Part shown: one piece after another, positions 144 through 23,961 of the stretch
Layout: each line of letters begins with the position of its first letter
Position numbering within the stretch: the first letter of the stretch is position 1
Source of the DNA: a virus
IMG/VR virus record: IMGVR_UViG_3300031994_000473
Coordinates: 1 to 26,023 of that record
Length of the DNA stretch: 26,023 bases
Direction: 5' to 3' (one strand)
Position numbers and translations under genes: made by a program
The notes under the pieces: generated by a model
What the model saw: the letters and a program-made list of their open reading frames with translations, nothing else
Told to the model about the DNA's origin: nothing
Databases searched by the model: none

Positions 144-1163
144 TCAATTCAATGTAGCTAAGTTGGCTTTTATGTAAGCAATTTGCCTATCCGTATTATT
201 ATTAAATTTTGTCAGCATATCCGCAAAATTAACAATAGCATTAGATAACTAAATCTTATCACGTTCAGGTTCATGCGGATAGCGGTAAATTTTCTTTACC
301 CTTTGCTTTTGTTTTGTTCTCTTGATTTTATCAACTAATATAATATCATCTCCTAATTCTACCTAAAGCGGGAGCCCGCTTAATTGTAACTCATAACCTA
401 CAATAGGAGATGAATAATAATCTAAATATGCTTCAGCCATCATCTTTAGCTGTTGTGCCTATTCAATATCATCTTGTACCCAATATTGCGGCAAATATTT
501 GTCACAATATGAAAAATTCTATATTATAGGGCTTCCGTTGTTAATTGCAGTTATATTCAATCCATTTTTTCCTATTGGATATAAAACTGTTGTAAAATCG
601 TAGCACTGACTTTGTTTTTTGAGCAACTTTAACCGCAGCTCATTAGAAAAGTACATACCGCGGTTTTCCCCCATATGTCCGTAAACCCTAACTACCTTTT
701 CTTTTGTATCAAAGAAGATTTCTAAATTAAAATCCTCTTTAATTTGCTGAATAGCTTCATACGGGGTCGTCCTCAACGTATGATACTCAACCTCATTTAA
801 GTAAGTGCATTGATAATCAAGAGTCCAACTAGTACCTTCAAGAGCAGTAGTTAATGCTCCCTCAATATTCTTTTCTATAATATCATATACTGGAATTAAA
901 GTATGTTTTAATTCTTCAATGTCCGGAGAACAATAGATAGACATATACTTATAGTTATTTTCATTTACTTCTTTTATAACATAATTATAGTCTGCGGTTG
1001 TCACATATCCTTCCTATTGAACAACGGCTAAGTTCTATTCAGTCACAGGAAGTTTAAATGACAATGTCTTTAGCCCCGTATCTAACGAGGCTATGACACA
1101 CATATCCTTACTTTTATCGACTAACTTTAAGAAGTTTTTATCCGTATCATATATTTTAATCAT
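144..1163 (-). CDS. Tail-associated hub protein (Tal/gp27-like N-terminal region), 339 aa, 6 in-frame TAG
   Basis: Track ORF 519..1004 extends in frame through TAG at 1035 and 1014 upstream, and at 519, 459, 363 and 249 downstream. It starts at ATG 1161-1163 (AGGGGG upstream) and ends at TGA 144-146. The N-terminus MIKIYDTDKNFLKLVDKSKDMCVIASLDTGLKTLSFKLP and the motif YRYPHEPERDKI(TAG)LSN resemble the N-terminal region of Gram-positive siphophage minor structural/Tal proteins. Confidence 0.75.
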
Positions 1164-1175
1164 GCGGTCGCCCCC

Positions 1176-1544
1176 TTAAATGTATCTAGGTTGATACTAA
1201 ATACTTACACTAGAGGTTGCCGCATCAGTAATTGAAATTTCATTTATACCAGGTAATAAGCGAGGAAATTCCCAAGCATCATAGTCATTAAAAGCTGGTT
1301 GATCATCTTTTGTGACAGTGCGGTTGATACCATCTAATACAAGAATGGTATTTCTTTGCACTCTTGATACTCTAATAGGTTCATCACTTAAACCTGTAAT
1401 TTCCATTTGCATGACATCATTCTGGGGAACAATGGTCAGGCGGCAAGGGGCTGCCGCCGTCCCATTATTAATAATTGTAAAATCACCAGAAGAGTCAAAT
1501 TCAATAGGAAGATAAGTTTTTCCTTGTAATGACTCTATATTCAT
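1176..1544 (-). CDS. Distal tail protein (Dit) C-terminal domain encoded as a separate 122-aa protein, 1 in-frame TAG
   Basis: ATG 1542-1544 follows AAGGAGG. TAG at 1197-1199 is followed by YQPRYI and then TAA at 1176-1178. The sequence IINNGTAAAPCRLTI...LVLDGINRTVT...DAWEFPRLLPGINEISI...QPRYI fits the C-terminal half and typical ...RY(L/I) end of Sipho_tail/Dit proteins. Confidence 0.7.
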
Positions 1545-1561
1545 TGTTTTCCTCCTTATAA

Positions 1562-4500
1562 TTATCCTGCTACCGTATCTGTTGTATCAATCCAACCCAT
1601 ATTATTAACATATTTCCAGGCTTCATCTTGAATTAAATATGTTTGAGATTCAATTCTATCACCATTTTGATAAGTATGAACTAAGTATGCATCATTAGCT
1701 ATTGGTAATGAATATGCTTTTAATTCATCTTGTGAAACAATATAGGTTCTTGGATTTGCATATGTACCAGTATTTTTATTTGTATCTGTTTTCTTAATCC
1801 AACTATCTCCTGTCCAGTATAAAGTGCCATCAGTTGAATTTTCATATTTTGCAAAAATTGGTTTAACAGTTTCAGATTGTAATGTAATTGGATAAATATC
1901 CAATTTAGGAATCTTATAACTATTTAGGGAAGTTGCAGTATTATGCTGATTTCCTTTTAAAACTACCGTATCTTTTATTTCAGTTAATGTATCTGAATAG
2001 GTTTCAGAAGGTAACAATTCTAATTTATAAGAACGATACCATGCTTTGCCATCAGACCACCATAATCCTTCCACTCCATGTTCCTGATCATTTGTTGTAT
2101 AAAAGATAGGAATAACTATATCCTTATTAAGAGGATTAAATTTAGTAGAGTAAATTGAAGGTTGTTTATAATTATTAGTTCCATTATCTTTAACCTTTGC
2201 AAAATATTTAACATTATTTTTATCATATATCATAACATCATCTAATGATCCTACTGGAGAATCTGATGTATCAATAATTTGATCAAATAAAAATGGTTTA
2301 ATACCTGGGTCTGTTGTCCATGTTCTATATGGATCTTCACCCCTTGGATGTGCAGTATATTCATAAGAACTAGTGTGGTATACAGCTCCAGTAATTAAAT
2401 CTACTAAACAATGTGATCCTAATTTTTTACCATTGAAAATATATCCTTTTGGTAATGGAACAATATATTTTTGTAAGAAATAATCTTTCCAAACTTTAAA
2501 AGCATAAAATACTGGATAGTAGAATCCATGAGCAGAGCTAAAGCCATTTGCAAATATTCCTTGATGATACCAATATACTGGAGAAGGTTCATATATATTA
2601 CTACTAGGTGGTGTATATGAAAATTGACTTTGAGGAATTAAATTACGATTTTCTATAACTGCTCTTTTTGAACTATTAGTATTAGATTTTACAAGTTCAT
2701 CATTAAATTTAAACCAATAGAAACCATCCTAAAGAGGATTAGTGTTTAACTCTAATTTCTAAATTCCATCTATTGCATAGTCATCATGAGTATCTAATTC
2801 ATCACTTAATTTAACACCATAATATCCTGAATGATAATTACTTACGTTATCTTTATAACCTATAACTAAACTAATATCTCTTTTATTTGAAAAATTAGTA
2901 ATTAAAATTTTTTCAAGATTTCGACTATTAGGAAGTAAAAGCTGGCTAAAATTATAAAGAGTGAAAGTAGGATTATCATTATAACCATCTAATCGTGTGA
3001 ATAAAGATCTATAAGAACCGTCTTCACTGGTAAAGTTTGTAGCACAATTAGTTTGTAACTCCCAATCCCACATTCCACTATTTGTTGCACCGGGTGCATT
3101 ACTCCAATTGTCTAAGATCATAGTAGACATTGGAATATAAGAATCTGGAGGTAAATATGCTCTATATTTTCCATAACTTGGAATATATAAAATCCTTTGA
3201 ATTGCTGTGGTAATAATCTCTTCAAAAGTAAAGTAAACATCTTCATTATCATATGAACGAGGATTCCATAAGAATGTTCCATCTTCATATTGTTCTGAAG
3301 GCTTAAAAAGATTTTTATCTACTCCAAAGAAATCCCAAGTTAATCTAATAGGAGTATCTCTATATAAAGTGGGCTTAATTGGTTTTGTATAGTCATTTTC
3401 CATAATCACAGGATGAACTATATTAACATCTTCAATAAGAACGAATCCCCTAGTTGCGGAATCCGCTTCTAACCATACTAGGAAATAAGATTGTCCTTGG
3501 CTATTTACTCTAACTTCCTCGTCTTCAGTAACAAATCTAGTTCCAACAGGATAAGGTCCTTTTCTTCCATCCTCTCTAAAATCACCGTAGGAATATAAAT
3601 AAGTTTCAACTTTAGCAGTTAATAATCCATTATCCGCTTTATATCGTTCATATTTATTACTTGTTTCAATAAAGACATCCCAATCAGGATTCCAGTTGCT
3701 TATGCTACAAGAGAAAGCTGTTCTGCCCACTTCATATTGTTTAAAGCTTCTTTGAGTTGATACTTTAAATGGACCAAAATCAATTAATTTAACATTTCGC
3801 TTTTCAATCCAGCCCTAATCAATTTGATAAAGATTATTTTCAAAATCTAAAAGAGTAACCTCAGTTCCCTCTTCTATTGTATCTAAAACCTAAGATTTAT
3901 CTGCATTATAAATCGAAGAATCTCTTAAAATAATTCCTCTACCATAATAATCTCCAGTAGGAATAATAGAACCATTATGAATAATTTCTAATCCTTCTGG
4001 TAATGAATCTAATCTTGGATAAGTATCTTGACTCATATCGCTAGGATAATTATTTGTTTGACCTAACGCAAAGAATACATATTTTTCTTCAATATATTGA
4101 TTATCTTCTACTTCAACTTTTGATTGAATAGATACCTACTGTTGAGGAGTAATCCCAGAGTAAGTTATAGTAGCTTCTGGCGTTTCTGGCGCAAACCAAA
4201 TTACCTAATCTGTTGTATTTTTAACAATAGGATAATCAAGAGCTAAAGAAGAAGCTCTGGTAATAGTATAATCATCTTCAATATCAATATACCCATCTTC
4301 AGTTTCTAACATATCTGAATTGTCTGGACTAGCACCATAAAACTCAAAACTAGTATTAGCTTCATAGGTTTTAACTAAAGTCTATTTTTCAATATCTTCA
4401 TAAACATTAATTGCGGTGTTAGCTACAGCTAAACCAGTAGCGGTAGATTCTGTAAAGTACCTATCTTTATAATATACAACATTATAAGCATAAATAGTTT

Positions 4501-7500
4501 CTGGATATATAATATCTACATTATGTGCAGCGGTTAATTCTACACGATTAAAATTACCATTATAATTCATTTCGCCAGAATCATGGAAACGTAATTTATA
4601 TTGGTCTATTCCAAAATGATCCCCAAAGAAATCACTGAATAATTTAGACCAGCTATTGATTGTATTCCAATCAAGTTCATCTAAATGAACTACTCTAGCT
4701 TCTAATGCATTATATAATCTACCAGATTGATTAAATGATAAATCTTCTGTTTTAATCCAAGATTGATGTTCTGGACTCCAAGCCCAAAGTCTATCAATAG
4801 TCAATTTAGTAACAGTAATCATAGTTGAATATGGAACTGTAACTAAGTTTTCTGGATTTTCATCATATTCAGGATTCTGCCCTGGGCCAATAGTAGGATG
4901 AGTGTATCCAAGAATAATCCATCCTTTTGGATATTCTTTTAATCTACCCCAACCGCGTTTTTCTTCGATAACAGTATAACGTCCTTTATCTACGATTTCC
5001 GCCAATGTGCTATAAGCACGACCAGGTCCTTTATGTACCGCACAATAGTTAACATCAACATCTACTTGATAAGGAATGAAATAATCTTGTTTTTCATCCT
5101 CATATAATGCGGTATGATAATGATTAATATATTTAATTGCGCCGTTAGGATTTAAGACTCTAGCGTCTAAATCGCAATCTAAATAATTAACATCATCTTC
5201 ATTTAATGTAATTAAATCATCAGAGGCACCGCCGCGATAATAGTTAATATATAATAAATCTGGCTTCTCTTGTGCGGTAAATTCATCATAAATAACAACA
5301 GGTGATGGTGCGTCGATGAAACCTTTAATATCATTATCAATTAATAACTGTTCATTAAAAGCAATTCTACCTGGCTTATAATCTTCAGATGCATATAAAT
5401 CAACATCAATACCAAGATCTTCCAGTGAACTAGCATTTTCTATATCTTTAATGTTATAGAAAATATCTCTGCTACCAACTCTCTTGTTTCCTCTATAATA
5501 TTCAACGGTTTTAGTGAATGTTAATAATTTATAATAAATATTAGCGGTTCCTGCATTAAATATTGTCTTTAATACACTTTTCCCAACAACCTAACTATTT
5601 AAATTCCATGTTCCATATAATTCATCATTATCTAAAGATAATTTATGAGTAGTTGAATTGTACCATAAATTTTCATATCCTTCAAAATCATAATCTACAT
5701 CAAACATTCCGTTTGTATGGAAGTCATCTGGTTTAAAATCATTATATCTTAAAACTTCATAAATAGTTTCATTAGATTCTCTAAACATTACAGGAATATC
5801 AACATAATGATTGCCTAAGAAAGCATTATTTTCATCATAATAATTAATGACAATTTTACCAAATAAAGTCCAGTCATTACAAACATGGAATGGCGCAACC
5901 TAATGTGGCTAAACCTTTTTAGTTTGATTTGTATATGTCCACTGTCTATCCTCAGTGTCAATAGAGGAACTATAAGTTCCACCCTCATTAGCATTACTAA
6001 AGAAAATTTCAGTTACACGATCAAACATACCATTAGCTGGAGCTGTAAAATCATAAATTTTATCACCTTTAGCTACTGGAACTAAATCTCTTACTAATTT
6101 ATCCCTATCCCATATTTTTAAATACCATACTGCCATACGTGCGGGAACAGGGAAAGAATCAACTGGCATACCTTCATAAGCTATTGAAATAGTTTTAGAG
6201 ATATTTTGATAATGCCAACCTTGTTCAGAACTATCTGGTATAATAGTTGTAGACTCTACAGTAATCGAATTCTGGAAGCCAGTTTCATAAGGGTTATTAC
6301 TTAGTAAAACAGATAAACCATGTTGATTGAAGGTTCTTGCTCCAGTTAAAACTCCAGTAACTCGGAAAGGTTTCCAATTAATTTTACCAGTTTCTGGATT
6401 TCTAGTTATACCCAATGTTAAACTTCCTTTAGGTTTACCTCTCCATTCCCATAAATCAGTGTCTTGATTAACTAAATTATGAAATTCTGGATGCATTGAA
6501 TTTGTATAATCATACACTTCTGTATAATTATTTGGAGCATCTAAAACCATAGTTAAAGGATTACCAGCAACAAAACGAGCATGATCAATTGAACAACTAG
6601 TTATTTCTCCAAAAGGTGCGTTTGCTCTAAAATTAACCTCTGCATCTTGTATCATTCCCTTAAATGGTGAATCCTATTGAGAATCTGCGTCAAGAAAACT
6701 TGGATTAATATGTACAGCAGGACTTTTTATGCTATTTTGTGGAACAGGAATTGCACCAAACATTGGATACTAACCATGTCCCTAATTTTTGTCAACAGAA
6801 TAGGTATAGAATAAAGGAACAGATCTTAATTCTTCATCTAGAATTGAAGCTTTTCCTCGCCTCATTCCTCCATGTAATTCCCTCACTGATTCAATTGATC
6901 CATTAAGAGCATACCCATCAGGTGCATAAGGTGTTGCATGACTATTATATGAATGACCGTCCACATGAGTTGGTTGACCTAACTATCCACCATAATCCCA
7001 AAGTGTTGTCATGGTATGTCCAATATATCTAAAATCGCCGTCGTTGTTCTACGCAGCAGCTGTATAAGGTTTAGTTTGTTTTCCTAAATCCTTAATTGTT
7101 TCTTCAAAATTTTGAGCAGGATAATATCCAAAGAATCCTGCAAAATCATTACCCTTAAGTGAATAATGACTAGTTCCACCTATAGATCCTTGATTTAAAC
7201 AATAAGCCTTTATTTCACTTTTAAGCCTACCAATCTATTTAGGAGTATATCCTAAATCTAAATAAGGAGTGATAATATTTGCTTTTGGGTAGAAGGTTTG
7301 TTCCCCAAGTGAATTCCAATATGGAACAGGTAGAGTTCCCCAAGTTCCATGTGGATATCTTCCTGGAACCCATTCATCTCTAGCTATTGCTTCAGTACCA
7401 AAATCTCCTCCTTCAGCTATTTGTGTATATCCTTCAGCAGTATCAAACCAAAGAATCTTACTCGGCCAATCTTCATCATCAGGATCATGCGGCTATTCTT

Positions 7501-10500
7501 TAGTTTCATAAATAATATCTACATGACCTGCTTCAACAAGAGAAGTAAATGTATACCATGCTGTTTCGTCCGCTAAAACACCGCCCCAACAAATAATTGG
7601 TTTGTAAGCATTAAAATATGCATTTGGTAATTCATCAGTTAATTGGAACTGTTCATCATCATGCCAATCATCTACTTGAACTTGCCAATAATTGTTACCG
7701 ATTAAGTTTTCTTCATCCACCTCATCCGTATAATATCTAATTTCAATGCTAAACGGAGCAGGATCATATAAGATTTTATATTCACTCTTTAAAACATCTG
7801 GTGAGTAAAGATTTTCATCTTCAAGATACCATAAATAGTTTAAACCTTCTTTATAGAAACTTACACCAGATATTGCGGATTGCGGTCTGAATTGATTAAA
7901 ATTAATATGTTTTTCAATAAACTCGCCATCTGCAAATTGAGTTTCATCAAGAGATAAGGTAACTTCCCCAACCTTCTCATAAGACTCAAGTTTATTAAGT
8001 GGAGTAATACCAAAGACCTTCCGCCAATAGGTAACCTTAGTTGTATAAACTTGCGGATTCTCAACCTCTGTATATACAATAGTATAAGGTGAGTGTTCTA
8101 AGATACGTCTTAGTGTTACTTTTGTTTCAGGATATTCATAATTAACTTTATAATTATCCGGTTTATATTTTAATAACGGAACTATCTGTCCAAAAGTAGG
8201 AACTGATAAGAAATCTTTTTCAGTAAGTTCAATCACGTCTGATGTGATTAAATTGTTTTCATCATCTGCGCTATCTCTATAATAATTAACAGTAATATTA
8301 TAACTAATACTTTCATAATTAACATGGAATGTAAAGTTATTTACATTATCAAAATTAATTACTCCAATATCAGCTAAATTAACAATCGTACCACTGCCGC
8401 AATAGTTAGGTTGAAAATCATCCATAAATAAATTGGTGCTTTCAATCCAGTTACTATTTTCTGTGAAATCACTACCTCTAAAGTAATAGGTAACTGTATT
8501 AAATAATACGTTATCTTTATAATAATTTACATAACATTTTCCAATCTTATGCTCTGGATCATCATCTACTACATCAGGGTCATCCATGATATTAAAACTA
8601 TTTAATCCAGTTACATCTTCAAAGAAATTCTCTGTAATCTTATCGTAAAGACAATTACTTGGAGCAATCTTATCACCAATCTTATCAAAGAAAGCAACAG
8701 GGACAAAGTCACGAATTAACGTTCCGTCATAATAAATTTTACAACTCTTAATACCAACACCTGCAATACCGCCTTTATAAGAACCGTTATAATCACAAGC
8801 AAATAAATAAAGCGGGAGGTTCATTGGTACATGATTAGATTGAACTAAATGTGTAAAAGTAATAGTACCATAACTGTACCCTTCTCTTGTAGAAGAAGAA
8901 ATACCAGTATTAGAACTAAAACCTTCAGATGCATTTTCTTCAACAATTAATTCTGGTGTGCCGCGGCCAGCAGCTACGTTAAATGTATTAACACCAGTCA
9001 TTTCAGCCTTAGGACCGAATTGAGTATTATTACGATACTTAATATAATAATTACAATCCGCAGATACAGAACCGAATAAATAAGCATCTCCTACATTTAC
9101 ATTGTAAAGAGGTTCAGTGTCAAATACTCTGTAAGTATCTACTAAAACTGTTAATTTACTAACATCATCGCAAGTTACTCCAGTATTGATATAAGCATGA
9201 TTTAATGTCCAGTTTGTATATAAATTCTCAAACTCACCCATATCATTATGTTGTAAGAAAAGAATTCTATGTGGATAGTTAATTCCACTTGGATCAACTG
9301 GTTCACTTTCAGCTGTGTACACAATATCAATAGATTCAACAGCTCTCAATGCAGAGAAATTAACTGGTCCAGTATATTGTACCTCACCATTGCCGCAATA
9401 GCTAGGTTTGAAACCATTAATATCTAATCCTAAATCAGTTAAAGTAGTATTAGTTGAAAAACTTAATACAGTATAATTTAAAGTATCTGATCCAATCCAG
9501 TTCTCATCAGCTACTTCATCTGTATAATATCTAACTGATGTGCTATATTGAGTTGCGGAATATAATACATTATATGTTCCTTGTATATCTTCAAAAGTTA
9601 AAATAGCAGTTGCGGATTCCCCATCTATAATACCATCATTATAATATTCAGGTTTATGAGCATTTAAGTCAAACAATGAAGCTAAAGTAACTCCACCGCC
9701 CACCTGTGATTCTTCTATTGTTATGATAGAAGTATTAATGGTACTATACATTGATGCTAACTCTTGTTTATACTTAATAACAATACTTTTAGTACGAACT
9801 ACATCAACTTCTTTATATGCAATCTTAATTGGTGCATTTGCTAATAATGTAGCTAATTCAACAGCACCTTGATAAGAGTTATCTGCATCAAAAATATATC
9901 CTTCTGGACGTAATAAGTTAATATTAACAATCTGTGCAAGCGCAGGTGAATTTAAGAATTGAGTGGCATTAATTTGAATAGTTCTTGATTCAAGCTTTTC
10001 ATCATCTTGATAATAATCAACAACTAAATCAAAATCTTTTGCACTATAAAATATTTGTAAAACACCCACATCAATTAAATCATCAAAAGAAGTAATTGAA
10101 CCTTGTACGTTAAACAATCTTCCAGAATTATACTCTACAGTTAAATACCTATCTAAATCAATATTAACCGCCGCTAATATATCTTCCGCATTATCATAGC
10201 TAGTTTTATATTTAATTAAATGTGTATGAGTTGTAATTCTACTCCAATTTGGATAAGAACCATAAAAATATTCCACATACACGCGGTTTTCGGTTAATGG
10301 ATAATTAATCTGTACTGACGTTGGTAAAGTTTCAAAAGTAAGTTCTGTATTAGAATCCATGTTAACTACAGTTCCAGAATTATAATACTTTTGAGGTTTA
10401 TATAGGTCTTTATTAATAAAGTCCGTAATTTTTGCTCCGGGAAGAACATCACCTTCGCCGATAATATAAACAGTGGCGTCTTTAAATTCAAATTGACCGC

Positions 10501-12967: not shown

Positions 12968-12977
12968 AAACTCTCCT

Positions 12978-13616: not shown

Positions 13617-13807
13617 TATTCTTCCTCAATATCTTCTATATTTACTTCTATATAATTATCTGGGGTATCCATACTCCCCATCCTGAGAGACGGGGAATAC
13701 AGATGAACCTCAGTAACAACATTATCTTCATTTAATGCGTAATGAGGTTTCTTAAAGTCTAATACCTTACCTTCATCCGCATATATAACTCTATCTCTTA
13801 TTACCAT
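13616..13807 (-). CDS. Small structural-module protein (63 aa), paralog of 13809..14027
   Basis: An internal ATG at 13805-13807 follows GGAGGG, one nt after the upstream TAA. TAA 13616-13618 overlaps the next ATG. It shares Y.ADEGKV.DF...E.HLYS..L..G..D..DNY.EV with its neighbour. Confidence 0.6.
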   Translation of the reverse strand: MVIRDRVIYADEGKVLDFKKPHYALNEDNVVTEVHLYSPSLRMGSMDTPDNYIEVNIEDIEEE

Positions 13808-13808
13808 A

Positions 13809-14027
13809 TTAACCCTCCTGCGTAGGAGCGTCAACTTCTACGTAATTATCGATGCTATCTGTGATGCCTAAGAACAATGTCTTAGAGTAAAGATGTTCTT
13901 GTACTGTTGTTTCTACTCCAGTTTCAGGATCTTTCTCAACAGTGACATGTGTTGATAAATCAGCCCAATCAAATACTTTACCTTCATCCGCATCGTATCT
14001 TTGCACTGTATATTCTTGTGTTTTCAT
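13809..14027 (-). CDS. Small structural-module protein (72 aa), paralog of 13616..13807
   Basis: Intact ORF with AAGAGG RBS and a TAA stop. It carries the paralogous motif RYDADEGKVFDW...EHLYSKTLFLGITDSIDNYVEV. Confidence 0.6.
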   Translation of the reverse strand: MKTQEYTVQRYDADEGKVFDWADLSTHVTVEKDPETGVETTVQEHLYSKTLFLGITDSIDNYVEVDAPTQEG

Positions 14028-14039
14028 GTTTTACCTCTT

Positions 14040-15254
14040 TTATGTTAACGATACTGTCCAACCCTTTGCAGTTGCTACTGCTATTTCTGCGGCAGTGAGG
14101 TCTGCTATTGCTCCTCCATCTGTTGCAGATCCTTTGTTAGTAGCATTTTCAAATGTAATAGTATTAGTACCACCTGCTGTTGCTATATATGCACTAGTAT
14201 CTGGGAGTGAATTAATAGTGTTTACCGCACTATCATGATTATATCTTGAATACTCAGGTAGAGTAGTAAACCACCAATCTTCATTTTTTAATGCTTCATA
14301 ACTTGCTGCATCGGTAACTTCTTTAGTAGTATCAAAATATGTATCCTTACTAAAACCAACAGGAGTAACACCATAATCAGCAAATACTTTAAAATTTTGA
14401 CTTTTATATTCTCTAACTACTGGAGCGTTATTTTCCATTAAAAAAGTTATATCTTTAATGCAATATAAATTAGCACCGGCTGTTCCAAACATATTTGCAG
14501 TTATAGGAGCTACTTGTTGACTTGAATAACCCCTATATAATGGAAGATTTAAACTTGTTAAACTATAATCTTGACCAAAACCTTGAGAAAAATTTAAAAG
14601 GCCATATTGAGATGAATTTGTTACAACAGACCACCAACTGAGATCAGGAATAGTTTTTAATTTATAACAATGTAAAAATGTCTGTTGTGGGGTTTGTTGA
14701 AATTTATTCTGTATCGCAAATAACACATCTGAATTATTTGTTAAAAAATCAAAAAAATTAGATGGAATAGACTATAAAGAACGACAATCATAAAAAGTTC
14801 CATTTGCAGTTAAATTAAACCCAGTCCGAAGATTTGGGTTATTATTTAAATTTAAAGTAATTATAGGTAATTTTTTTACATTACTAGTACGAAAAGAATA
14901 ATTTACCTGTACTGTAACAGATGAAGCATTAGCAGAAATAGTTAAAGGCAAAGTATAACTAGAAAGATCCTACAAACTTGTAGTCTAAGCAATATTACTT
15001 AAATTTGAATCTCCTGTAAAATTTATTTTATTCTTTAATAAATCTTTTAAAGCTATAAAAACTTTACTACCAAATAGATTTGATCCATCAAAGGGAAAAT
15101 TAATAGTAGGAATTTCTGCTCCACCACCGCCTTCAATAGCGGCAATAGCATCAGCCATATCACTAGGATAATAAGTAGTTTGTGTTCCATTTTGTTCTCT
15201 AATAGCATCGGCAATATCAGTAAGCGTGCTATCATTAATTAATACTACACTCAT
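14040..15254 (-). CDS. Fibre/receptor-binding candidate with BspA-type leucine-rich-repeat-like core, 404 aa, 3 in-frame TAG
   Basis: Track ORFs 14985..15254 and 14040..14726 are in one frame and are joined through TAG at 14985, 14970 and 14772. No TAA or TGA occurs in that frame. Motifs: N-terminal LTDIADAIREQNGT...MADAIAAI; Cys-containing repeats (CRSL(TAG)SIPSNFF, FLHCYKLKTIPDLS); C-terminal AAEIAVATAKGWTVSLT. Confidence 0.6.
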
Positions 15255-16921
15255 TAATATTGTACCTCCTCTGCATTAGTAAGATTAACAGAAATGACAC
15301 CATTAACAATGCTAATTCCAGTACCTGCGGTATAAGTAGCTCCTGCCCCATCCTGTCCATCTTGACCATCATATACATTAAAATCAGTATTACGAGAATC
15401 TCCTGTCCCATAACTAAATGCGACATTATGTCCTCCGGTTATCGAAGTTACTGTAACAATAGGTGTGATACCATCTTGTCCTGTTCCACCTCCGCCGCCA
15501 GTTGCGGAAATCACTCCATTAGTAATTTCAATACCAGTTCCCGCTGTATATGTCGTATGTTTAAATAAAGGAATTACTTTATTACTCCATGCGCTATATT
15601 GATTATTATAACCATTATACTAATAAATACGACCATATATATTATCAAGGTCCCGGAAAGAGTCACCAAGACCCAAGAAATAAATAAATAATCTTGTTCT
15701 ATTATTAGAATTTTCATTTGTTCCCCAGCATCTATCTGGGTCTAAATCAAAATACGCATATCTTATCGTTGTGTAGTTGGTCGTTATTGTAGTAGAGTTA
15801 GGCAAAGTCTCCCAAGAAAAAGCTGTGCTTCCATTATAGGAAGAACTAGTTGGAACTCCAACACTTGGGAGACATACATATCCATAAGTATTTACAGGTA
15901 TATTTTCCAATTTTGATGGGAAAAACATTCCAGTTTTAGGAATAGCATCTCTCAAATCAGTCTCTGAATAATCAAAATAAGTTAAATTATTAAAAATACC
16001 TGGTTTAATATCTCCACCTGTTCCATCTTGACCATCCATTACATCAAAATCAGTATTTCTTTGATCACCAGTACCATAATTAAATGCTATGTTGTGACCA
16101 CCAGTAATTGAAGTTACTGTTACTGTTGGAGTAATACCATCATCTCCATCGGTACCATTTGTACCATTTGTCCCTGCGGGACCTTGCTCTCCTTGAGGTC
16201 CAGTCGCACCTGTTGCACCATCTTGACCGTTTGTTAAATCAACTTCAGTAGTGCCAGCAATATCAGTTACCGCTAAATGATAACCATTACTTGTTTGTGT
16301 TACAACAACAGAGGGTGAAAAACCATTATTACCAGTATCTCCCTTTTCACCTTTTGGACCCTGAACACCTTGCGGGCCGGTCTAACCTGTATCTCCTTTT
16401 GGTCCCGTATCACCAGTATCCCCTTTTGGACCTTGAATACCTTGTGGACCTTGCTATCCTTGAGGACCAGTTTCACCCTGTGGTCCTTGTACCCCTTGAA
16501 TACCCTGAGGTCCTTGAGCTCCGGTTGCACCAGTGTCACCCTTATCTCCCTTGTCACCTTTATCTCCCTTAAGAGAAGCTTTCTGCTCAGGAGTTAAAGA
16601 TTCAAAAGTAACAGCACCATCTTCACCTTTTGGTCCTGCTTCACCGGGATCTCCTTTATCACCCTTATCACCTTTTGGTCCTTGAGGTCCAGTCTATCCT
16701 TGCGGTCCCCGCAATCCTTGGTTACCATCATCACCTTTTGGTCCTTTTAATGAAGCTAACCACTGTGCTTCAGTCCCGCTAAATCCGTTTTCAACAGCAA
16801 CTTCGTAAGCACTTAATCCATTGCCTACGACTCTAATAAACCCCAGTTCTTCGCTATTCTCTGCCTGGGTTGGGGTAATATTCTTTAACGAATAAAGAGT
16901 TGCGGTAATATCATTTGCCAT
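15254..16921 (-). CDS. Collagen-like (Gly-X-Y) fibre protein with an internally duplicated beta-module, 555 aa, 4 in-frame TAG
   Basis: Track ORFs 16694..16921, 15620..16039 and 15254..15514 share one frame. TAG at 16694, 16454, 16382 and 15620; TAA at 15254-15256. Long GXY runs are present (GPKGDKGDKGDPGEAGPKGEDG..., GATGAQGPQGIQGVQGPQGETGPQG...). Confidence 0.8.
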
Positions 16922-17250
16922 CAGTACGTTACCCCCTAAACTATCTTAATCTTAGCTGGGCCAACAACAGTATCAACCCAACCTGTTTCTGTGTCTAATT
17001 GTATATCATAAAAATATGTGCCTTTATCTAAATTAGTATCTTCTGAACTTAAATAGATAATAGCCATATTGTTGTTAGTAAATTCAGTAATCACTTTTTG
17101 TACAAGAGGTGTTTGTGATTCTTTTTCTTTTGAGATTGTAAAAGTAATCTTATCCCCTTCCCGCAGTTCATAGTTATCAAGAGCTACAGAAAAATAGGCG
17201 GTATCCTTTTTTACAATCGTAATCTTGTTGTTTTCATCAACTGTATACAT
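16921..17250 (-). CDS. Ig-like/beta-sandwich structural protein, 104 aa to TAG 16936 or 109 aa to TGA 16921
   Basis: Track ORF 16936..17250. After the TAG, 5 codons lead to a TGA overlapping the next ATG (TGATG). The motif KGTYFYDIQL...GPAKIKIV is typical of small phage Ig-like domains. Confidence 0.55.
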
Positions 17251-17253
17251 TGA

Positions 17254-17553
17254 TTACCTCTTTTCTTCAACCAGTATAGAATGTACAAAGCGGCGATGCG
17301 GGTTACTAAATCTTAAGGAATAGTTCTTATCTCTAAAAATATATTTAGCATCTTTCTTAAGCTATTCCCAAGAGAAAACAATCAAAACCTGCTATCCATT
17401 CAAACCATACTGTCCTGCTACTTCAGGATTAGTATTTAAAGAAGCATTACAGATGATCTCTCTTTGAACTGGATCGCCAACCTTGCGGCGGCCACCGCCA
17501 TTATCATCTTCATACTATTGAATGTTTTCAATTAATATATCTCGCATTACCAT
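17254..17553 (-). CDS. Head closure / head-tail adaptor-like protein, 99 aa, 3 in-frame TAG
   Basis: ATG 17551-17553 lies one nt after the upstream TAA; TAA at 17254-17256. Translation: MVMRDILIENIQ(TAG)YEDDNGGGRRKVGDPVQREIICNASLNTNPEVAGQYGLNG(TAG)QVLIVFSWE(TAG)LKKDAKYIFRDKNYSLRFSNPHRRFVHSILVEEKR. The call rests on position and size. Confidence 0.5.
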
Positions 17554-17554
17554 A

Positions 17555-17854
17555 TTATATACACCTAATCTTTCTGTGTTTTGTAAGTGTAGATATAATA
17601 TTTTTACTATATCCATCAATATAGCTCTCATTAACGCCAGAACCGGAGACTGAGGATAAACCCTCAGTCCCCATAGCGTTGTATTTCTAAATAACCATGC
17701 TTATTACTGCGGAATCTAATTTCTTATTATATTCGGAAAGATTACAAAAATCAATTGCTTCATCTTTGCACATACTAATCAAGAGATCAAGTAACTCATC
17801 TTTACTTTCATCATCTTCATTAATTCCTAATAATAATTTTATTTTATCCAGCAT
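17555..17854 (-). CDS. Head-tail connector (gp6-like, Phage_connect_1-like), 99 aa, 1 in-frame TAG
   Basis: ATG 17852-17854 follows AAGGAG; TAG at 17687; TAA at 17555-17557. The sequence MLDKIKLLLGINEDDESKDELLDLLISMCKDEAIDFCN...GTEGLSSVSGSGVNESYIDGYSKNIISTLTKHRK fits the family pattern. Confidence 0.65.
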
Positions 17855-17874
17855 GATTAAACTCCTTTATCAAA

Positions 17875-18786
17875 TTAAGGATTTGTAGTTCCGCCTTGAG
17901 TACCGCCACCTTCGGTACCTCCGCCTTGAGTTCCACCTTCGGTACCTCCGCCTTGAGTTCCACCTTCGGTACCTCCGCCTTGAGTTCCACCACCAGCAGC
18001 GGCAGCACCAGTTGTAATCTTAACAACCTTAGTAGCATCAGTAAGAGCAACGAGGGCTACTTTACGAGCAAATACTTTATTGTTACGGTAGTTGGCATCT
18101 CTTTCCTGTTCAATTTCAGAACCTTTCTTAATGAAAAGAGTAACTGCTTCAGCGTTAGCAAGGAATGCAGTATTTTCAGGAACTGCCTTAGAAACAATTA
18201 CAGGAACACCACATACTGTTCCAATGTAACCAGTTCTTACGAAATCTTCAACATATTTAAGGTCATCACCAAGAGCCTTTCTAACTTTGGCTTTGTCACC
18301 TGTGTTGATAAGAATGAAATAACCTGTTTCATCTTCAAGATCTAATTTAGCAATAGCATCAACAACAGCATCAAATGTAAGTCCTGTTGCGGAAGCGTCA
18401 TATGTAATAGTAGCCTTACCAAATTCCGCAATCGCTTTTCTTGTAAAGTCATTTGTCATGCGGGTTGCAAGTCCATAAAGACCAGCATCTACTACCATAG
18501 GATCTTTCATTTCTTGTTCATCGTAGTATTGGAATCTACCCTGAGTAACACCTACAACGTAGTCCACATCAGTGAAGCTAACTTCGATGTCATCTGTATT
18601 ACCTTCACCCATTTCAAGGTCTTCAACATCACCAGTAGAAGTGTAAGTATGAATAGTCTTAATCATACCTGCATTTTCTGTAAGTGAAGTATCTACTGTC
18701 ATATAAGATTGAAGATTAACATTAGTAGTAAGTAAATCTTCAAGTTTATTTTCTAATACAAAATTTTCATATACTTTATGAGCCAT
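17875..18786 (-). CDS. Major capsid protein (HK97-fold, N4-gp56-like family of Firmicute phages) with a Gly/Thr/Gln/Glu-rich repeat tail; no TAG
   Basis: Intact 303-aa ORF after the scaffold gene, with AAGGAG RBS and a TAA stop. Its position, size and sequence style (…GRFQYYDEQEMKDPMVVDAG…FIKKGSEIEQERDANYRNNKVFARKVALVAL) fit a major capsid protein. Confidence 0.75.
   Translation of the reverse strand: MAHKVYENFVLENKLEDLLTTNVNLQSYMTVDTSLTENAGMIKTIHTYTSTGDVEDLEMGEGNTDDIEVSFTDVDYVVGVTQGRFQYYDEQEMKDPMVVDAGLYGLATRMTNDFTRKAIAEFGKATITYDASATGLTFDAVVDAIAKLDLEDETGYFILINTGDKAKVRKALGDDLKYVEDFVRTGYIGTVCGVPVIVSKAVPENTAFLANAEAVTLFIKKGSEIEQERDANYRNNKVFARKVALVALTDATKVVKITTGAAAAGGGTQGGGTEGGTQGGGTEGGTQGGGTEGGGTQGGTTNP
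17891..17991. repeat. 27-bp tandem repeat (~3.6 copies) encoding GTEGGTQGG units at the capsid protein C-terminus
   Basis: ccgccttgagttccaccttcggtacct is repeated head to tail. The first copy carries a 3-nt insertion. The repeat forms a GC-rich island in an AT-rich genome. Confidence 0.9.
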
Positions 18787-18805
18787 AATTATAATCTCCT
18801 TCTAT

Positions 18806-19375
18806 TCATCGAGTTGTCATCTGTTTATACAACTCTGGATTTGTTCTATATAATTCGGCTTGCTGTGATACTGTAAGTTTTGCGAACTGTTCTTTAGTCA
18901 TGCCAGTTTGCGATACTGAACTTCCCTTTGGAGCGGGAGTCGCTAACCTAGAATTTACAGCATCCGCAAGCGCAGCCTTCCATGCCTTCTCAAAATTGTT
19001 AATGTTTTCCATCATACTTTCGGCATCGTCGGTCACAATGTAATCTACAAATTGTACTGGCAGCCCTCTATCCGCAAGAACCTTTGATGCACTTAACTTA
19101 TTCTGTGTAAGTGCAAACTCTCTTTCTTTTGCTTCGAGTTCTGCAACTCTTTTTTGAAATTCATATTCTTTCTTTTGAGCTTCATCCATATCACGCAATT
19201 TCTCAGCTTCTGCGCGTTCATTTTCAAATTTCTGTTTCTGTTTCTTAAGTGCGGATGTCACTCTCCTATCAGCTTCCTGTTGCAGAAGTTTATCAACTTC
19301 TTCTTGTGTATAGGTCTTAACCTCTTGAACTGTTTCCTCTGCCCCAGTCTCAACTGTTGTTTTATTTTCTTCCAT
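18806..19375 (-). CDS. Capsid scaffolding protein (DUF4355-like), 189 aa; no TAG
   Basis: Intact ORF directly upstream of the capsid gene. It is charged and coiled-coil rich (EEVDKLLQQEADRRVTSALKKQKQKFENERAEAEKLRDMDEAQKKEYEFQKRVAELEAKEREF), with a TGA stop. Confidence 0.7.
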   Translation of the reverse strand: MEENKTTVETGAEETVQEVKTYTQEEVDKLLQQEADRRVTSALKKQKQKFENERAEAEKLRDMDEAQKKEYEFQKRVAELEAKEREFALTQNKLSASKVLADRGLPVQFVDYIVTDDAESMMENINNFEKAWKAALADAVNSRLATPAPKGSSVSQTGMTKEQFAKLTVSQQAELYRTNPELYKQMTTR

Positions 19376-19477
19376 AATCTATATCTCCTTAAAAGTTCGC
19401 TATCAAAGCGCCCTTGTATCAAAAATAAATGAGTTACTTAATGTCCCTCATGGTTTATAAAAATTTTATTTAATCAC

Positions 19478-20011
19478 TTATTCGATTTTGTCCTAAAATT
19501 TCCAAACAAAACCTTTATGTTTTAAACCTTGATTCATAGCCATAGATAAGGTATTTTTATTATACCCAGTGGCTGCAGCAGCCTTAGCTACAGATTCGAA
19601 ACGACCAACTTCATTTCCACCTGAATCGTATTGAACAATATCTTTGTTAAAATGTTCTTTTCGTTTGTCAATTCTACGTTTTTGTACATTACCATAGTTT
19701 ACATTATATTTTGATGTACACCATTCAAGGTTTTCAACATTATTATTTTCCTTATCCTAATCAATGTGATTTATTTGCGGCAACCCCTCTGGATTAGGAA
19801 TAAAAGCTTCTGCAACAGCCCTATGAACATATTTCTGTTTATATTCATATTTACCAGTAGCTAACTTAACCTTTAAATATCCTACTCCTTTTTGAGTGCG
19901 GCTAGAATAAGGTTTAAGAATTCGTTGTGTTTCTTTATTGCGGACTCTTCCTTGTGTGCTTACTTCATATCTAGGAAAATCCTAAATTGTTTTCCAGGTT
20001 TCTTGTTTCAT
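19478..20011 (-). CDS. HNH homing endonuclease (NUMOD4/HNH_3-like), 177 aa, 3 in-frame TAG
   Basis: ATG 20009-20011 follows AAGGAG. TAG at 19982, 19757 and 19493; TAA at 19478-19480. The sequence WKTI(TAG)DFPRYEVSTQGRVRN...GYLKVKL...YVHRAVAEAFIPNPEGLPQINHID(TAG)DKENNNVENLEWCT is the classic phage HNH_3 signature. Confidence 0.8.
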
Positions 20012-20095
20012 AATCTATTTCTCCTTTGAATAATTCTTTCTACCATTATTCAAAATTATAAGAAATAAATTATATAAACTTGACCAAATTTTTTG

Positions 20096-20953
20096 TCAGT
20101 TTTCCTTTTCAAACTAGTCATATGCACAAAAGGAACAAGCACAATTAGGATGATATGGAGGTAAATCAACTCCAACATCAGCTTCTGCAAGCGGGATAGC
20201 CTATCCTACATAATCTAAGCAAATCCCTCCGCATTCCGCATCACCAATTATTTCCACATATTTAACACCACTCTATAAATAGGTATCTTTAGTGGCTTTG
20301 CTATAAATTGCCATTGTTTCGGTTCTAATAAGCCGTCTAGCTTGATATGCAGCAAATCCTGTTAGCTTTTGAAGTTCTTCAGTCATTTTATCTAATGACC
20401 AACCATTGTGAATTCCCTACAACAGAACAGAGCGAAGCTTAGAATCAAGAGTATCAACAATGTAGTTTGATCTATCTTTAAATGTTTTCTTGTCTTCACA
20501 CCATGGCTCTAATACTTTCTTCTTAATATCAATAGGAAGAATGAAATTCTTATTACCAACGGATTGCGCGGTCGCCGCTGCCGTCATCTAATAATCTAGA
20601 ATTAACCATGCCATTAATCTGTTGTTCTGTAATTCTTTTAAGTCACGCCGCATTTGCCTAAGGGTCTATTCCATCTAGGTAATATGCCCTCCCCGCATCA
20701 ATGAATGTGCAAGCGCTTGGTATCGTTTCATATCAATCGATCCCCGCTTAAAATAAAACGGGAACTCGTCTTTATACAATTTTTCTAATTTGATTAAGAC
20801 CTATTTATAGTCTTTAACTATATCGTTTTCAACTTCTTTAGCATCCGCTAACAACTAAAGAACTAAATCAAGCTCGTCTTGATAACTCTACTGATTATTG
20901 TAATCACTCTTCTTCTTTATTATCTTTTTCTTCTTCTTCTTCTCTTGACTCAT
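20096..20953 (-). CDS. Head morphogenesis protein, SPP1 gp7 / Mu F-like, 285 aa, 10 in-frame TAG
   Basis: ATG 20951-20953 lies inside the portal 3' end. TAG at 20888, 20855, 20801, 20675, 20666, 20588, 20417, 20273, 20201 and 20114; TGA at 20096-20098. I scanned the frame and found no TAA or TGA. The C-terminal IIGDAECGGICLDYVG(TAG)AIPLAEADVGVDLPPYHPNCACSF matches the family motif. Confidence 0.75.
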
Positions 20954-22277
20954 CCTAATCCTCTCCATTTAATCCCAATCTTACGTCATAGAAAGGATTA
21001 GCTTCTTGCTCTTTATCGAGTCTTTGAATTTCAGCTTCAACATCTTCAACAAAAGGAAGTTGAGCAAGTAAAGTCTCACGAGATACTTTACCAGATAATG
21101 TACTAACCATATTTGCAATTTCGGTATCATTTGAAGGAAGATTACGAGTAAATGTAATATCAATAGCTCGCCAATCAAACGCACTACCTTTTAATGCGGC
21201 GATGTTAAATATTAATTCAATCCTTCTCTGCAATCCACGTTTAAATTTACGCTCTTTAATTGCAACGACGTTTTCCATTGGTAATGTTTTATATTTAATT
21301 GCTACTCCTGAAGCATTTCCGCTAAACGCAGTATCGCTCATATCAGGAGTTTTAGAGAACTTATGAATATCTCTATCTAATCTATTCTTAACATTCTCTA
21401 TTGTTGTATCTGACCCTTGCTTAGTAAGCCATTTGGCATCAGAGTTTTCATCTAATAAAATGATACGATTCTCTTTCATAGCGGCGACATCGTCTTTATC
21501 CGCATTGAGACCAGATAAACAAAGATATGCATCTACAAAATAATCAAAGTCATCAAGAGAATCAGATTCCATCTTATCATAAGCGTCAATTAACGAAAGG
21601 ACTGGTTCAAAATCTCCAATCTCTTCTTCGTTATTTTCAAATACTACAATAGGAACAGAACCAAAATAATGCGGCGCCTCCGCTTCAAAGGTCAGAGTAC
21701 TCAAGTTCGCATCACTCTTATAATGCATCACTTTTGTATCTGAATAAACCTAAACTCTATAATACACTTCTTCAGATTCGATATCTTCACATTCAAAATA
21801 GCGGATGCCGTATAAAAGATCTTCATTAAGAGTATCGTCATATACAAGTACAATCTCTCGTGGATCCAATCTCTTTAGCCGCGTCTGCGCATCTTCATCT
21901 AAATAAACTAATTCAACAGCAAGACCAAAAATACTCATGTCTTTAGCTAACTCAATATTTTCATCTTGCTAATCAGTGTACTATAAAATCATTTTTAATT
22001 CATCCGCTGCTTCTTCAATTTCAGAAGAATAAGAAACACCCTAACCCATAAAATAACCTGTTAGAGTATCTGTAATGTAGCTTGCATACGGATGTGCAAT
22101 ATTATTACATGGAAGAGTCTCATCTGTTTTCATTCTTTGTAAAATAGGATTCTTCGCATGATAATAATTATCTAATTTATTAAGTCTAGCGATATCTCTC
22201 ATCCTATGTTTATCAATTAATTTCTTAATGATTTCAACAGTAAGAGGAGTCTATCTGCTTATCTTATACTGAGGCAT
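20904..22277 (-). CDS. Portal protein, SPP1 gp6 family, 457 aa, 6 in-frame TAG
   Basis: ATG 22275-22277 follows AAGGAGG. TAG at 22251, 22041, 21981, 21969, 21750 and 20955; TGA at 20904-20906. Motifs: KLIDKHRMRDIARLNKLDNYYHAKNPIL..., NNIAHPYASYITDTLTGYFMG(TAG)GVSY, and an acidic C-terminal tail. Confidence 0.85.
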
Positions 22278-22707
22278 CTTTGTCCTCCTTATCATTATAA
22301 ATCTCTCGTAATTCCTACATTAAATTATCAATATAACTATTACCGCCTTCATTCTTATAATGTTTATAGCGGCGTTCCAATAAATCCATTTGCATACTAT
22401 CTAATATACTTGGATCTTTTTTACATTGTTTATACAACATTACAATCCAGCTTTTTATACCATCTAGATCGCTGACTAAAAGTGAATCAAGCTTTTCGGT
22501 AATCTACTGTAATTGATCTTTTAGTCCCTTAACTTCCTACACAAGCCAGGTTAATAATTCTTTTTCATCTCGTACTTTATCAACCTGTTGAACAGTTTTA
22601 TTTTTAAAGAAGTCATACACTTCATAAAACTATTTACATGCTACTCCAAACATAAATAAAAATACAATAGTAAACTACAATGAATATTTTGAAAAGAACT
22701 AGACCAT
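22264..22707 (-). CDS. Membrane-anchored coiled-coil protein (holin-like candidate?), 147 aa, 6 in-frame TAG including codon 3
   Basis: ATG 22705-22707 follows AAGGAGG. TAG at 22699, 22675, 22630, 22537, 22504 and 22315; TAA at 22264-22266. It has a hydrophobic N-terminal segment FTIVFLFMFGVAC followed by heptad-like charged sequence. Confidence 0.55.
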
Positions 22708-22716
22708 ATTTCCTCC

Positions 22717-23961
22717 TTATAGTCCTAATGCCCCTTTTGACATTGTTTGTAACTTTTTGCGGTAAGTACCACATTGTGTGCCGTATCTAGCTGCATCTAT
22801 CAAGTGACAAAATGCGTCAATGGGTTTATCGGTCCAATTATCAAACTTATCTTTATCAAAAGCATAATTAGAAAATTCTATAATCGCATTTTCACAAGAG
22901 GGATGAATCAATATCTCATACTCTTGAAGCTTGCGGATACCCTACATAATAGAGCCTTTGCCTTTCTTTGCGGGCTTCACTCTTAATATATCTAATTTAC
23001 CTAGTTCCGCAATTGAGCGTGGCTAAGCGCTGTCCGCATAAATTAAACACTTTTGATACCCACGATACTTAATCCATGCCGCCACCTATTCAAGAGTCTT
23101 CTGTGACTGATAAAACTAATCACAAAAATATATTCTTTTGTTCTCTTCATCTACTCGCATTACCGCAATAGCAGTAGGATCTTGCCAACCAAAGTCTAAT
23201 CCTATCCAAAGCGGAAAGTCAAGCTTCTTCACATCATATTGCTCAACCCGCCAGTTATCAAATACTAATCCCTATGATACTCCCCATTCCCCATCACCTT
23301 CGATGCGGAAACGTCTAGGATATTTAACTTTCATATCTTCAAAGACTTTAATATCATCCTCACCTAACCACTCGTTGCAGCGGTAGGTCGTGGTCATCGC
23401 TAATTTATTCTAGTCATTTGGCGTATCAAAGAAACGTTTTTTAAGCCAAATTTTATCACTCCAAGGGTTAAATGTAAATATTATTTGTTTAAAATAACCA
23501 GGAGGAAGCTAGCCCCTCAACGATAAGTCAATTTTATTAAAGTCTTCCTATGATGTTATTTGATAAGCCTATTCAATCCAACAGAGATTCAAATAACCAA
23601 CAGGAGCAGTAATAGAAGTAATTGAAAGTGGATTATCACATCCTCTAAAATAAATCTTTTGTCCAGTAGGCTAGTAAGTAGCTTCGAGCGGAGACACCGT
23701 GAATTTCCACAAATGACCCACTCCCAAGTTCTAAGCAGCCCACTTTAATTGTTTCCAGGTTGAATCTCGCTGCGTATTAAAGACTTGCCGCACCACCAAA
23801 CAATTGGATAGCGGATATTGCATCATTAAAAAAATAATCTTCATTGCGGCGGTCGTCGATTTCTTACTTCCACGAGATCCTTTCACCAATAGATAACGAC
23901 CCTTAAAGTTCCAAAATGCGTTATAGCCTTTACCTATCTTTTCACTTAGTCTAATTTCCAT
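22717..23961 (-). CDS. terL: Terminase large subunit, PBSX/Terminase_3-like, 414 aa, 11 in-frame TAG
   Basis: ATG 23959-23961 follows GGAGGA. The whole gene was translated by hand. TAG at 23731, 23671, 23569, 23548, 23509, 23410, 23272, 23116, 23086, 23023 and 22942; TAA at 22717-22719. Motifs: VKGSRGSKKST (Walker A-like), YFRGCDNP, LCWIE(TAG)A (Walker B), FTFNP, ADSA(TAG)PRSIAEL, KKGKGSIM(TAG)GI, HLIDAARYG. Confidence 0.9.

Follow-up and report, generated by a model that had tools for sequence, protein, structure and literature searches.

How the amber codon TAG is read in a phage genome, which amino acid it specifies and where its decoding comes from are the questions raised by the viral record IMGVR_UViG_3300031994_000473 (IMG/VR). 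The window analysed here is the whole 26,023-nucleotide (nt) stretch, positions 1 to 26,023 of that record. An earlier interpretation made from the letters alone, the sequence-only reading, held that TAG is a sense codon throughout the morphogenesis genes and placed the phage under genetic code 15, in which TAG means glutamine (Gln, Q). All genes under study lie on the minus strand; their starts were set at the first plausible ATG and several are approximate. The window very probably represents the complete 25,887-bp genome of an uncultured siphovirus-like phage of Bacillota, in which UAG would be a glutamate (Glu, E) codon used like GAG and only UAA and UGA would terminate translation.

Minus-strand open reading frames (ORFs) of at least 100 amino acids (aa) cover 15,189 nt under the standard code (code 11) and 26,007 nt when TAG is translated, which agrees with the sense codon proposed earlier. 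In the control with TGA as sense the corresponding minus-strand coverage was 16,398 nt, and with TAA as sense chiefly noise ORFs on the non-coding strand were gained; a gain of this size is seen only for TAG and on the coding strand. The whole window contains 98 in-frame TAG codons in 26 genes (8,372 codons), and 97 of them fall within the 8,044 codons of the 22 structural and morphogenesis genes, about 1 in 83. The earlier total of about 93 was thus slightly low, while its individual counts were reproduced: 11 in the large terminase gene terL (22717..23982, 421 codons, stop TAA; translation may in fact begin at the ATG at 23961), 10 in the Mu-F/SPP1 gp7-like head protein (20096..20968, 290 codons), nine in a chaperone-like gene (11648..12193), and six each in the portal (20904..22295, 463 codons, stop TGA), the Tal/Prophage_tail protein (144..1163, 339 codons) and a 147-aa protein with a hydrophobic N-terminus (22264..22707), the membrane protein of that reading. 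As it had also stated, the genes end at TAA (18) or TGA (8); TAG terminates none of the 26, and no in-frame TAA or TGA was overlooked inside them in the 8,372 codons.

The joined ORFs behave as single proteins. In searches with hidden Markov models, Pfam families run across the TAG codons as unbroken stretches of nearly full length: Terminase_3 (model positions 3-201 of 201), SPP1_portal (3-412 of 416, E=1e-122) and Prophage_tail (18-249 of 250), and Terminase_3C, Phage_Mu_F, HNH_3/NUMOD, Phage_tail_2 and Terminase_2 were also recognised. The frame 1562..11449(-) runs through 3,296 codons that include 18 TAG but no TAA or TGA, exactly as read before. The giant tail gene within it (1562..11446, 3,294 codons, 18 TAG, stop TAA) is not a chain of separate genes, because it corresponds to one called gene of 3,227 aa (L006) or 3,240 aa (L007) in standard-code relatives and to one gene of 3,062 or 3,078 aa in recoded relatives. 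It is strongly supported that TAG is a sense codon and that only TAA and TGA act as stops; the window shows both hallmarks of stop-codon-recoded phages, namely ORFs restored only by translating TAG and the use of TAA or TGA at the end of every gene.

The amino acid was assigned by aligning the window proteins to four standard-code loci representing three distinct phages (L004/L005, L006 and L007), L004 and L005 being the same phage at 99.7% identity. Within the 80 of 97 structural-gene TAG sites that could be aligned (212 cells), the residues opposite TAG were E in 52.8%, D in 9.9%, Q in 5.7% and K in 5.7%. The residues opposite GAA/GAG codons were E in 50.8%, D in 8.7%, Q in 6.2% and K in 5.9%, and those opposite CAA/CAG codons were Q in 34.4%, K in 12.7% and E in 8.5%. 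The log-likelihood of the TAG data was -408.8 for Glu, -568.4 for aspartate (Asp) and -575.4 for Gln. With each phage counted once, 29 sites were Glu in all relatives and one site was Gln in all of them.

The clearest columns are found in terL, in which the TAG positions aa 138, 145 and 320 are occupied by Glu in 120 of 120 homologs and aa 289 in 117 of 120. The other terL sites are mostly Glu or a mixture of Glu, Gln and Asp, aa 104 is hydrophobic or asparagine, and none of the TAG sites is a Gln-specific column among these 120 homologs. Residues 137-138 form an invariant acidic pair behind a hydrophobic strand (‘LCWIE-TAG’), which by motif logic would be the Walker B residue and the catalytic Glu. 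In ASCE ATPases, replacement of the Walker B Glu by Gln abolishes hydrolysis. The terL segment ‘ADSA-TAG-P’ corresponds in the alignment to ‘ADSSEP’ of the SPP1 G2P nuclease, whose structure is solved (2WBN). Pyrrolysine was considered at TAG and rejected, since TAG occupies invariant and putatively catalytic Glu columns.

Similar correspondences were obtained in other genes. Glu is present in all standard-code relatives at portal positions aa 85, 105 and 182, in all relatives at Tal positions aa 50, 215 and 305, in all four standard-code loci at aa 3 of the 147-aa protein, and in all three standard-code relatives at the only TAG of the SPP1_Dit C-terminal-domain protein (1176..1544, 122 codons). 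Most TAG sites of the three small head-tail genes (17555..17854, 17254..17631 and 16921..17250, with 1, 3 and 1 TAG, the first matching Phage_connect_1) align to Glu in relatives. In the collagen-repeat protein (15254..16921, 555 codons, Pfam Collagen), three of four TAG codons stand at X of the G-X-Y triplets, the usual place of its Glu (GETG, GEQG), and in L006 two TAG sites are matched by Glu and one by Asp.

A further line of evidence is the exchange of codons between recoded genomes. The TAG codons of the window face GAA (17), TAG (8), CAA (4) and GAG (2) in L001, and the TAG codons of L001 face GAA (13), TAG (8) and GAG (4) in the window; the swaps between TAG and GAA/GAG go both ways, for instance in terL, where ‘CWIE-TAG ... 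TS-TAG-ED’ of the window corresponds to ‘CWI-TAG-E ... TSE-TAG-D’ of L001. The codon counts are 97 TAG, 104 GAG and 408 GAA, so that UAG would make up 16% of Glu codons, and the nucleotide contexts at -1 and +4 are nearly the same for TAG and GAG. This usage and context mark TAG as the probable synonymous partner of GAG. The scaffold protein (DUF4355; 18806..19375, 189 codons) and the major capsid protein (17875..18786, 303 codons, Pfam Phage_capsid), the most abundant virion-assembly proteins, contain 48 GAA/GAG and no TAG codons (P ~2e-4), which may reflect general codon selection, as the capsid gene avoids GAG too. Judged from the aligned proteins, UAG is evidently a Glu codon and not a Gln codon.

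The same code occurs in relatives of the phage. All loci whose terL is at least 83% identical to that of the window are recoded (L088-L092, L001-L003). ORF coverage of these loci is 0.29-0.67 under code 11 and 0.82-0.96 with TAG as sense, the value of 1.03 for L003 arising from overlapping ORFs that were summed. Loci with terL identities of 70-81% use the standard code (L004-L007, L093-L095), and more distant lineages are recoded again (L110/L111 at 69%, L112 at 66%); in all the recoded loci Glu faces TAG in 38-56% of the cells. At least three recoded lineages lie among standard-code relatives. In the latter TAG serves as stop in 21 of 164 cases. TGA accounts for 32% of stops in recoded loci versus 8% in standard-code loci (9% of TAA+TGA; Fisher p=3e-6), an enrichment that would fit termination by release factor 2. 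The closest standard-code relative, L004/L005 (Logan SRR33964902 and SRR29188459, terL identity 79-81%), ends none of its approximately 29 genes with TAG (P ~0.007) and has no sense TAG; its sequenced 20.7 kb are TAG-free and therefore readable under either code.

The public protein database renders the L001-L003 proteins (P0001, P0002) with Gln at TAG, and the terL entries of recoded relatives carry Q at near-invariant Glu columns, including one Walker-B-like EE position. If TAG is Glu, the Gln given for these relatives would be a systematic mistranslation.

Nucleotide comparison with GenBank phages gave no match to the window, and terL identity to them did not exceed 51%. A scan of GTDB genomes revealed prophages with terL identities of up to 58%, mostly in Clostridia and other Bacillota, and none of the 80 GTDB prophage loci showed TAG recoding. 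From these distant terL relatives the host is assigned to Bacillota, a probable placement at phylum level only. Four prophages of Oscillospiraceae and other Clostridia (L044, L067, L069 and L076, terL identity 49-52%) carry a tRNA-Glu(UUC), which in L067 lies between the portal and the next head gene and in L044, L069 and L076 at a similar distance from terL; L076 possesses a Ser-Glu-Leu-Gln tRNA cluster. In L112 (811..1515) a 122-aa integrase remnant adjoins a degenerate tRNA-His-like sequence and suggests a temperate ancestry for part of the phage family. The tRNA-His-like call was rejected as a decoder; it is degenerate, has no CUA anticodon and is probably an attachment (att) site scar.

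Positions 1..136 of the window are repeated at 25888..26023 with two mismatches; the contig is therefore a closed circle with 25,887 bp of unique sequence. No tRNA was detected in the window by ARAGORN (default, intron, circular and relaxed settings) or by a permissive Rfam scan, no aminoacyl-tRNA synthetase or release factor is present among the annotated window genes, and no tRNA with a CUA anticodon was found in ten recoded relative loci. A phage-encoded suppressor tRNA (Sup(CUA)), which is frequent but not universal in code 15 phages (35-52% of members), is thus absent from a complete genome. The sequence-only reading had regarded the small size and the absence of a tRNA as unusual. The absence stands, while the contrast is weaker than supposed: the TAG-recoded Topaz phages, which infect Firmicutes, have genomes of 22±3 kb, and suppressor tRNAs were found in only 35-40% of recoded phages (10.1101/2021.08.26.457843).

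The approximately 1.6 kb between the Tal and small terminase genes encode four small non-structural proteins: a 58-aa ORF (24436..24612), a 121-aa HTH_36 protein with a weak RepL match below the cutoff (24848..25213), a 79-aa helix-turn-helix (HTH) protein (25225..25464) and a 70-aa winged HTH protein (25801..26013). The 79-aa HTH gene contains one TAG, at 25269, which would end it under code 11. This codon is evidently read through, because the sequence behind it, ‘EHDIIIKVIVEK’, matches ‘EHNITIKVVVEK’ in L088/L089. Homologous small genes of recoded relatives contain TAG at E/D/Q columns (for example ‘SIRSQ-TAG-GERIAM’ versus ‘SIRSQEGERIAM’), with one to four TAG per locus in L001, L088, L090 and L092; together with the window, these four relatives have 11 early-gene TAG codons in about 1,505 codons. 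The whole genome is recoded, small regulators included, so that the earlier restriction to morphogenesis genes was correct as to the presence of TAG there and understated its extent. A TAG-free early or regulatory module of the kind described for a code switch by Borges et al. is absent, the small regulators being presumably early genes. As the regulators are recoded, no gene needs TAG as a stop and no standard-code early module is left. With recoded regulators and no tRNA of its own, the phage would have to be decoded in trans.

Candidate decoders were sought by pattern searches. A canonical tRNA-Glu anticodon arm with CUA (CACCGCCCTCTAACGGCGG, with or without the trailing TAA) had no match in IMG/VR, and scans of JGI metagenomes with CACCGCCCTCTAACGGCGG gave first no match and then two matches without a tRNA. 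The relaxed pattern GGTCAAGNGGTTAAGACNNNNNNCTCTAA, which combines the D-arm of Bacillota tRNA-Glu with any anticodon stem and a CUA loop, hit exactly two contigs in IMG/VR, which belong to phages unrelated to the window and to its sample series. Each has a well-folded 72-nt tRNA(CUA) gene whose D stem has 3 bp and whose variable loop has 4 nt. The best overall match of the tRNA(CUA) in the first contig is tRNA-Glu; for the second tRNA-Glu ranks first or close to first, by small margins. The tRNA-Glu class of both is partly built into the pattern, and an anticodon control supports it: the D-arm with any anticodon belonged to TTC/CTC in 114 of 121 cases, to TTT in 7 of 121 and never to a Gln anticodon.

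The first contig (IMGVR_UViG_3300021400_001383, L117; 36.4 kb, 51% guanine plus cytosine, GC) is a temperate-type phage unrelated to the window. Immediately upstream of its ParB and methylase genes, and before the late operon, lies the tRNA(CUA) gene. A single TAG is present in the first 6-34 codons of each of seven late genes (terS, portal, MuF, capsid, connector, tail tube and tape measure, within 10783..20771), and terL and the scaffold gene contain none; the arrangement resembles a gate on the translation of late genes. In the capsid protein, 109 of 116 homologs have Glu opposite the TAG (‘FIPELWAARL’), as determined by a database search, since too few homologs were available for a local tally of the L117 late genes.

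The second contig (IMGVR_UViG_3300032038_000025, L127; 117.9 kb) has a GC content of 33.5%, like the window, and originates from the same sample as L088, the closest relative of the window. The 20 kb covered (positions 3793..23936) encode 21 tRNAs, including two tRNA-Glu(UUC), one tRNA-Gln(UUG) and the CUA suppressor. A gene of at least 819 aa has 22 TAG codons, and an ORF with a putative NlpC/P60-like sequence at its end has 11, most of them inside a Glu-rich repeat (‘VEE-x-VYIE-x-EPIVYEE-x-VAY-x-EEPVYYE-x-EP’). This contig also contains a sigma-factor-like gene and a mixture of standard-code and heavily TAG-recoded genes. Glu-type amber suppression, as predicted from these sequences, is a real and wider feature of these communities, because two contigs combine a tRNA(CUA) with TAG at Glu positions. 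The JGI samples are presumably of rumen origin (one sample is named ‘STEW19’). Window positions 20035..20094 and L127 positions 15050..15109 share a 60-nt AT-rich stretch with a TATAAT-like box (82% identity), which lies upstream of an HNH endonuclease in the window and of a GIY-YIG endonuclease in the 118-kb phage.

According to the explanation preferred here, UAG would be read by an amber suppressor derived from tRNA-Glu, with the anticodon CUA, charged by glutamyl-tRNA synthetase (GluRS). The suppressor would be supplied in trans by the infected cell, from a host gene or a co-resident element, and be present from the start of infection, and release factor 1 (RF1) would be absent or strongly out-competed at UAG. 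Read-through would have to be nearly complete at each codon, because terL alone contains 11 TAG. Several points weigh against the Glu reading and its decoding. Residues other than Glu fill roughly half of the aligned cells, as is expected at variable positions, so that outside the invariant columns the Glu assignment is a statistical one. The search gave no decoder for the window phage, and the suppressor tRNA, the way it is charged and what becomes of RF1 are therefore presumed. Apart from the users of pyrrolysine, bacteria are not known to translate UAG. A Codetta screen of more than 250,000 genomes found only UGA reassignments among bacterial stop codons.

The likelihoods given below for the sources of decoding are separate estimates and need not sum to one. 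Supply at the level of the host, by a native code or a stably resident element, fits best, because of the recoded regulators, the GAG-like usage of TAG, the repeated recoded lineages and the TAG-free sister. One form of it, an uncharacterised rumen or gut Bacillota lineage that natively reads UAG as Glu and whose code the phage mirrors, is possible, if tentative. It is favoured by a complete genome without a decoder, recoding of every gene class, a TAG frequency and context like those of GAG, enriched TGA stops, interleaved recoded and standard-code lineages and the TAG-free close relative.

Somewhat less plausible, and on the whole unlikely, is that the suppressor comes from a co-infecting or resident phage such as the one represented by the 118-kb contig, the small phage being a ‘code parasite’. 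That contig shares its sample with L088 and its GC content with the window, is itself TAG-recoded and encodes the tRNA, and the promoter-like 60-nt stretch links it to the window; yet a shared sample and one short match are weak links. An obligate need for a co-infecting phage to make any protein would seem difficult to maintain, standard-code family members with the same gene set need no helper, and the occurrence of three or more recoded lineages speaks for decoding conditions that are stable.

Very unlikely is a non-canonical tRNA or factor of the phage itself that escapes detection and enforces a late code change, as in the model of Borges et al., who suspect that non-canonical tRNAs are missed (10.1101/2021.08.26.457843). 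The small-gene region does leave about 780 nt of non-coding sequence for such an element, but the genome is complete, no CUA tRNA-like element appeared at relaxed thresholds or in the Rfam scan, no standard-code early module exists to build the decoder, and the small regulators themselves carry TAG.

Still less credible is the conventional code 15, with TAG read as Gln as in crAss-like and Lak phages, and the earlier assignment to this code is not upheld. TAG to Gln is the only amber reassignment reported for phages, the public database already gives recoded relatives Q at TAG, and 5 of the 80 sites show Gln in at least one relative, aa 184 of the gp7-like protein in all. However, the TAG sites do not align to Gln overall (5.7% versus 52.8% Glu). 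The Gln model falls 166 log-likelihood units behind the Glu model, TAG stands at columns where all 120 homologs have Glu, among them those of the Walker-B-like EE pair and of the nuclease motif ‘ADSAEP’, and between recoded genomes TAG exchanges with GAA/GAG and not with CAA/CAG. Untranslated TAG codons in a decaying element or from a sequencing artefact can practically be dismissed: one G→T change turns GAG into TAG, but it would also make TAA from the four-fold commoner GAA, and no in-frame TAA or TGA exists, the same code recurs in at least ten loci from independent assemblies (JGI/IMG-VR, ENA, Logan), eight TAG positions are common to the window and L001, and protein sequence is conserved downstream of TAG.

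The remaining genes of the window are as follows. The small terminase gene (23942..24403, 153 codons, 1 TAG, stop TGA; Terminase_2) precedes terL, and an HNH/NUMOD homing endonuclease (19478..20011, 177 codons, 3 TAG; HNH_3, NUMOD4 and NUMOD1) is located between the gp7-like and scaffold genes. The C-terminus of the major capsid protein is a low-complexity GGGTQGGGTEGG repeat tail (approximately 17878..17990). The collagen-repeat gene and a gene for a 404-aa protein of unknown function (14040..15254, 3 TAG) are inserted among the head-tail connector genes, and the GC content near 15254..16921 reaches 44%, compared with a genome value of about 33%. They are followed by a tail-proximal gene (13616..13993, 3 TAG), an HK97-gp10-like gene (12978..13616, 2 TAG; weak Pfam HK97-gp10_like match), the tail terminator (12563..12967, 4 TAG; Phage_tail_terminator_8) and the tail tube (12190..12600, 3 TAG; Phage_tail_2). 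The chaperone-like gene has no Pfam match and is separated from the giant gene only by a 66-codon ORF (11446..11646, 2 TAG), also without a Pfam match; a tape-measure gene is not recognisable. The giant 3,294-aa protein has no significant Pfam domain and a weak SH3_3 match at about aa 2517-2552. Neither lysis nor integrase genes are recognisable in the window, the one weak RepL match is the only trace of a replication module, and this minimal non-structural layout is common to the window and its standard-code relatives.

Amber-recoded phages are a known kind. The code 15 gut phages (crAss-like, Lak, Garnet, Amethyst and Topaz; PMC9523058) resemble the window in TAG-rich structural genes, TAA/TGA stops, standard-code close relatives and many members without a detectable suppressor tRNA. 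In contrast, TAG is Gln there and, on the present reading, Glu in the window; TAG is avoided in their integrase or early genes, a pattern suggestive of a code switch, whereas the small regulators of the window are recoded, and the window has no integrase or recognisable full replication module. In the preprint of Borges et al. only TAG→Gln and TGA→Trp were observed (10.1101/2021.08.26.457843), and proteomic validation of phage amber recoding concerns Gln only.

The eukaryotic UAR→Glu codes (peritrich ciliates, table 30; Blastocrithidia nonstop, PMC12153298) share UAG as Glu, decoded there by cognate tRNA-Glu variants. These codes are nuclear and UAA is also Glu, whereas in the phage UAA stops 18 of 26 genes and no in-frame TAA occurs, so that tables 30 and 31 agree with the window for UAG and not for UAA. 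Phages that mirror the code of their host (code 25 of Absconditabacteria; code 4 of Mycoplasma and Spiroplasma) are recoded over the whole genome, as the window is, and need no switch machinery or suppressor tRNA, which the window lacks as well. Their host codes are known, whereas no bacterium with UAG→Glu is known. The contigs L117 and L127 resemble the Sup-CTA phages (Cook et al. PMC11210395) in that the tRNA(CUA) lies in or near tRNA arrays or upstream of late genes. They differ in the Glu-like tRNA body (D-arm, 4-nt variable loop, best overall match) and in TAG codons at Glu positions; the window phage has no such tRNA. In the searchable literature, whose coverage is incomplete, no TAG/UAG→Glu was reported in phages or bacteria and only eukaryotic cases were found; within these bounds the Glu reading appears to be new, and priority is not guaranteed.

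Current models of amber recoding rest on the charging of CUA suppressors by the glutaminyl-tRNA synthetase of the host. If the Glu reading is true, it would constitute a new code variant (TAG as Glu, TAA and TGA as stops) present in no NCBI table, with a different charging route through GluRS and tRNA-Glu(CUA), and present pipelines would mistranslate recoded relatives by placing Gln at near-invariant terL Glu columns. The closed 25.9-kb genome without a decoder, its standard-code sisters and the TAG-free sister genome form a compact test system, which could address the existence of a UAG-reassigned host and the way in which a code change spreads in a phage family. Such a recoded host, if true, would be the first case of UAG reassignment to a standard amino acid in bacteria.

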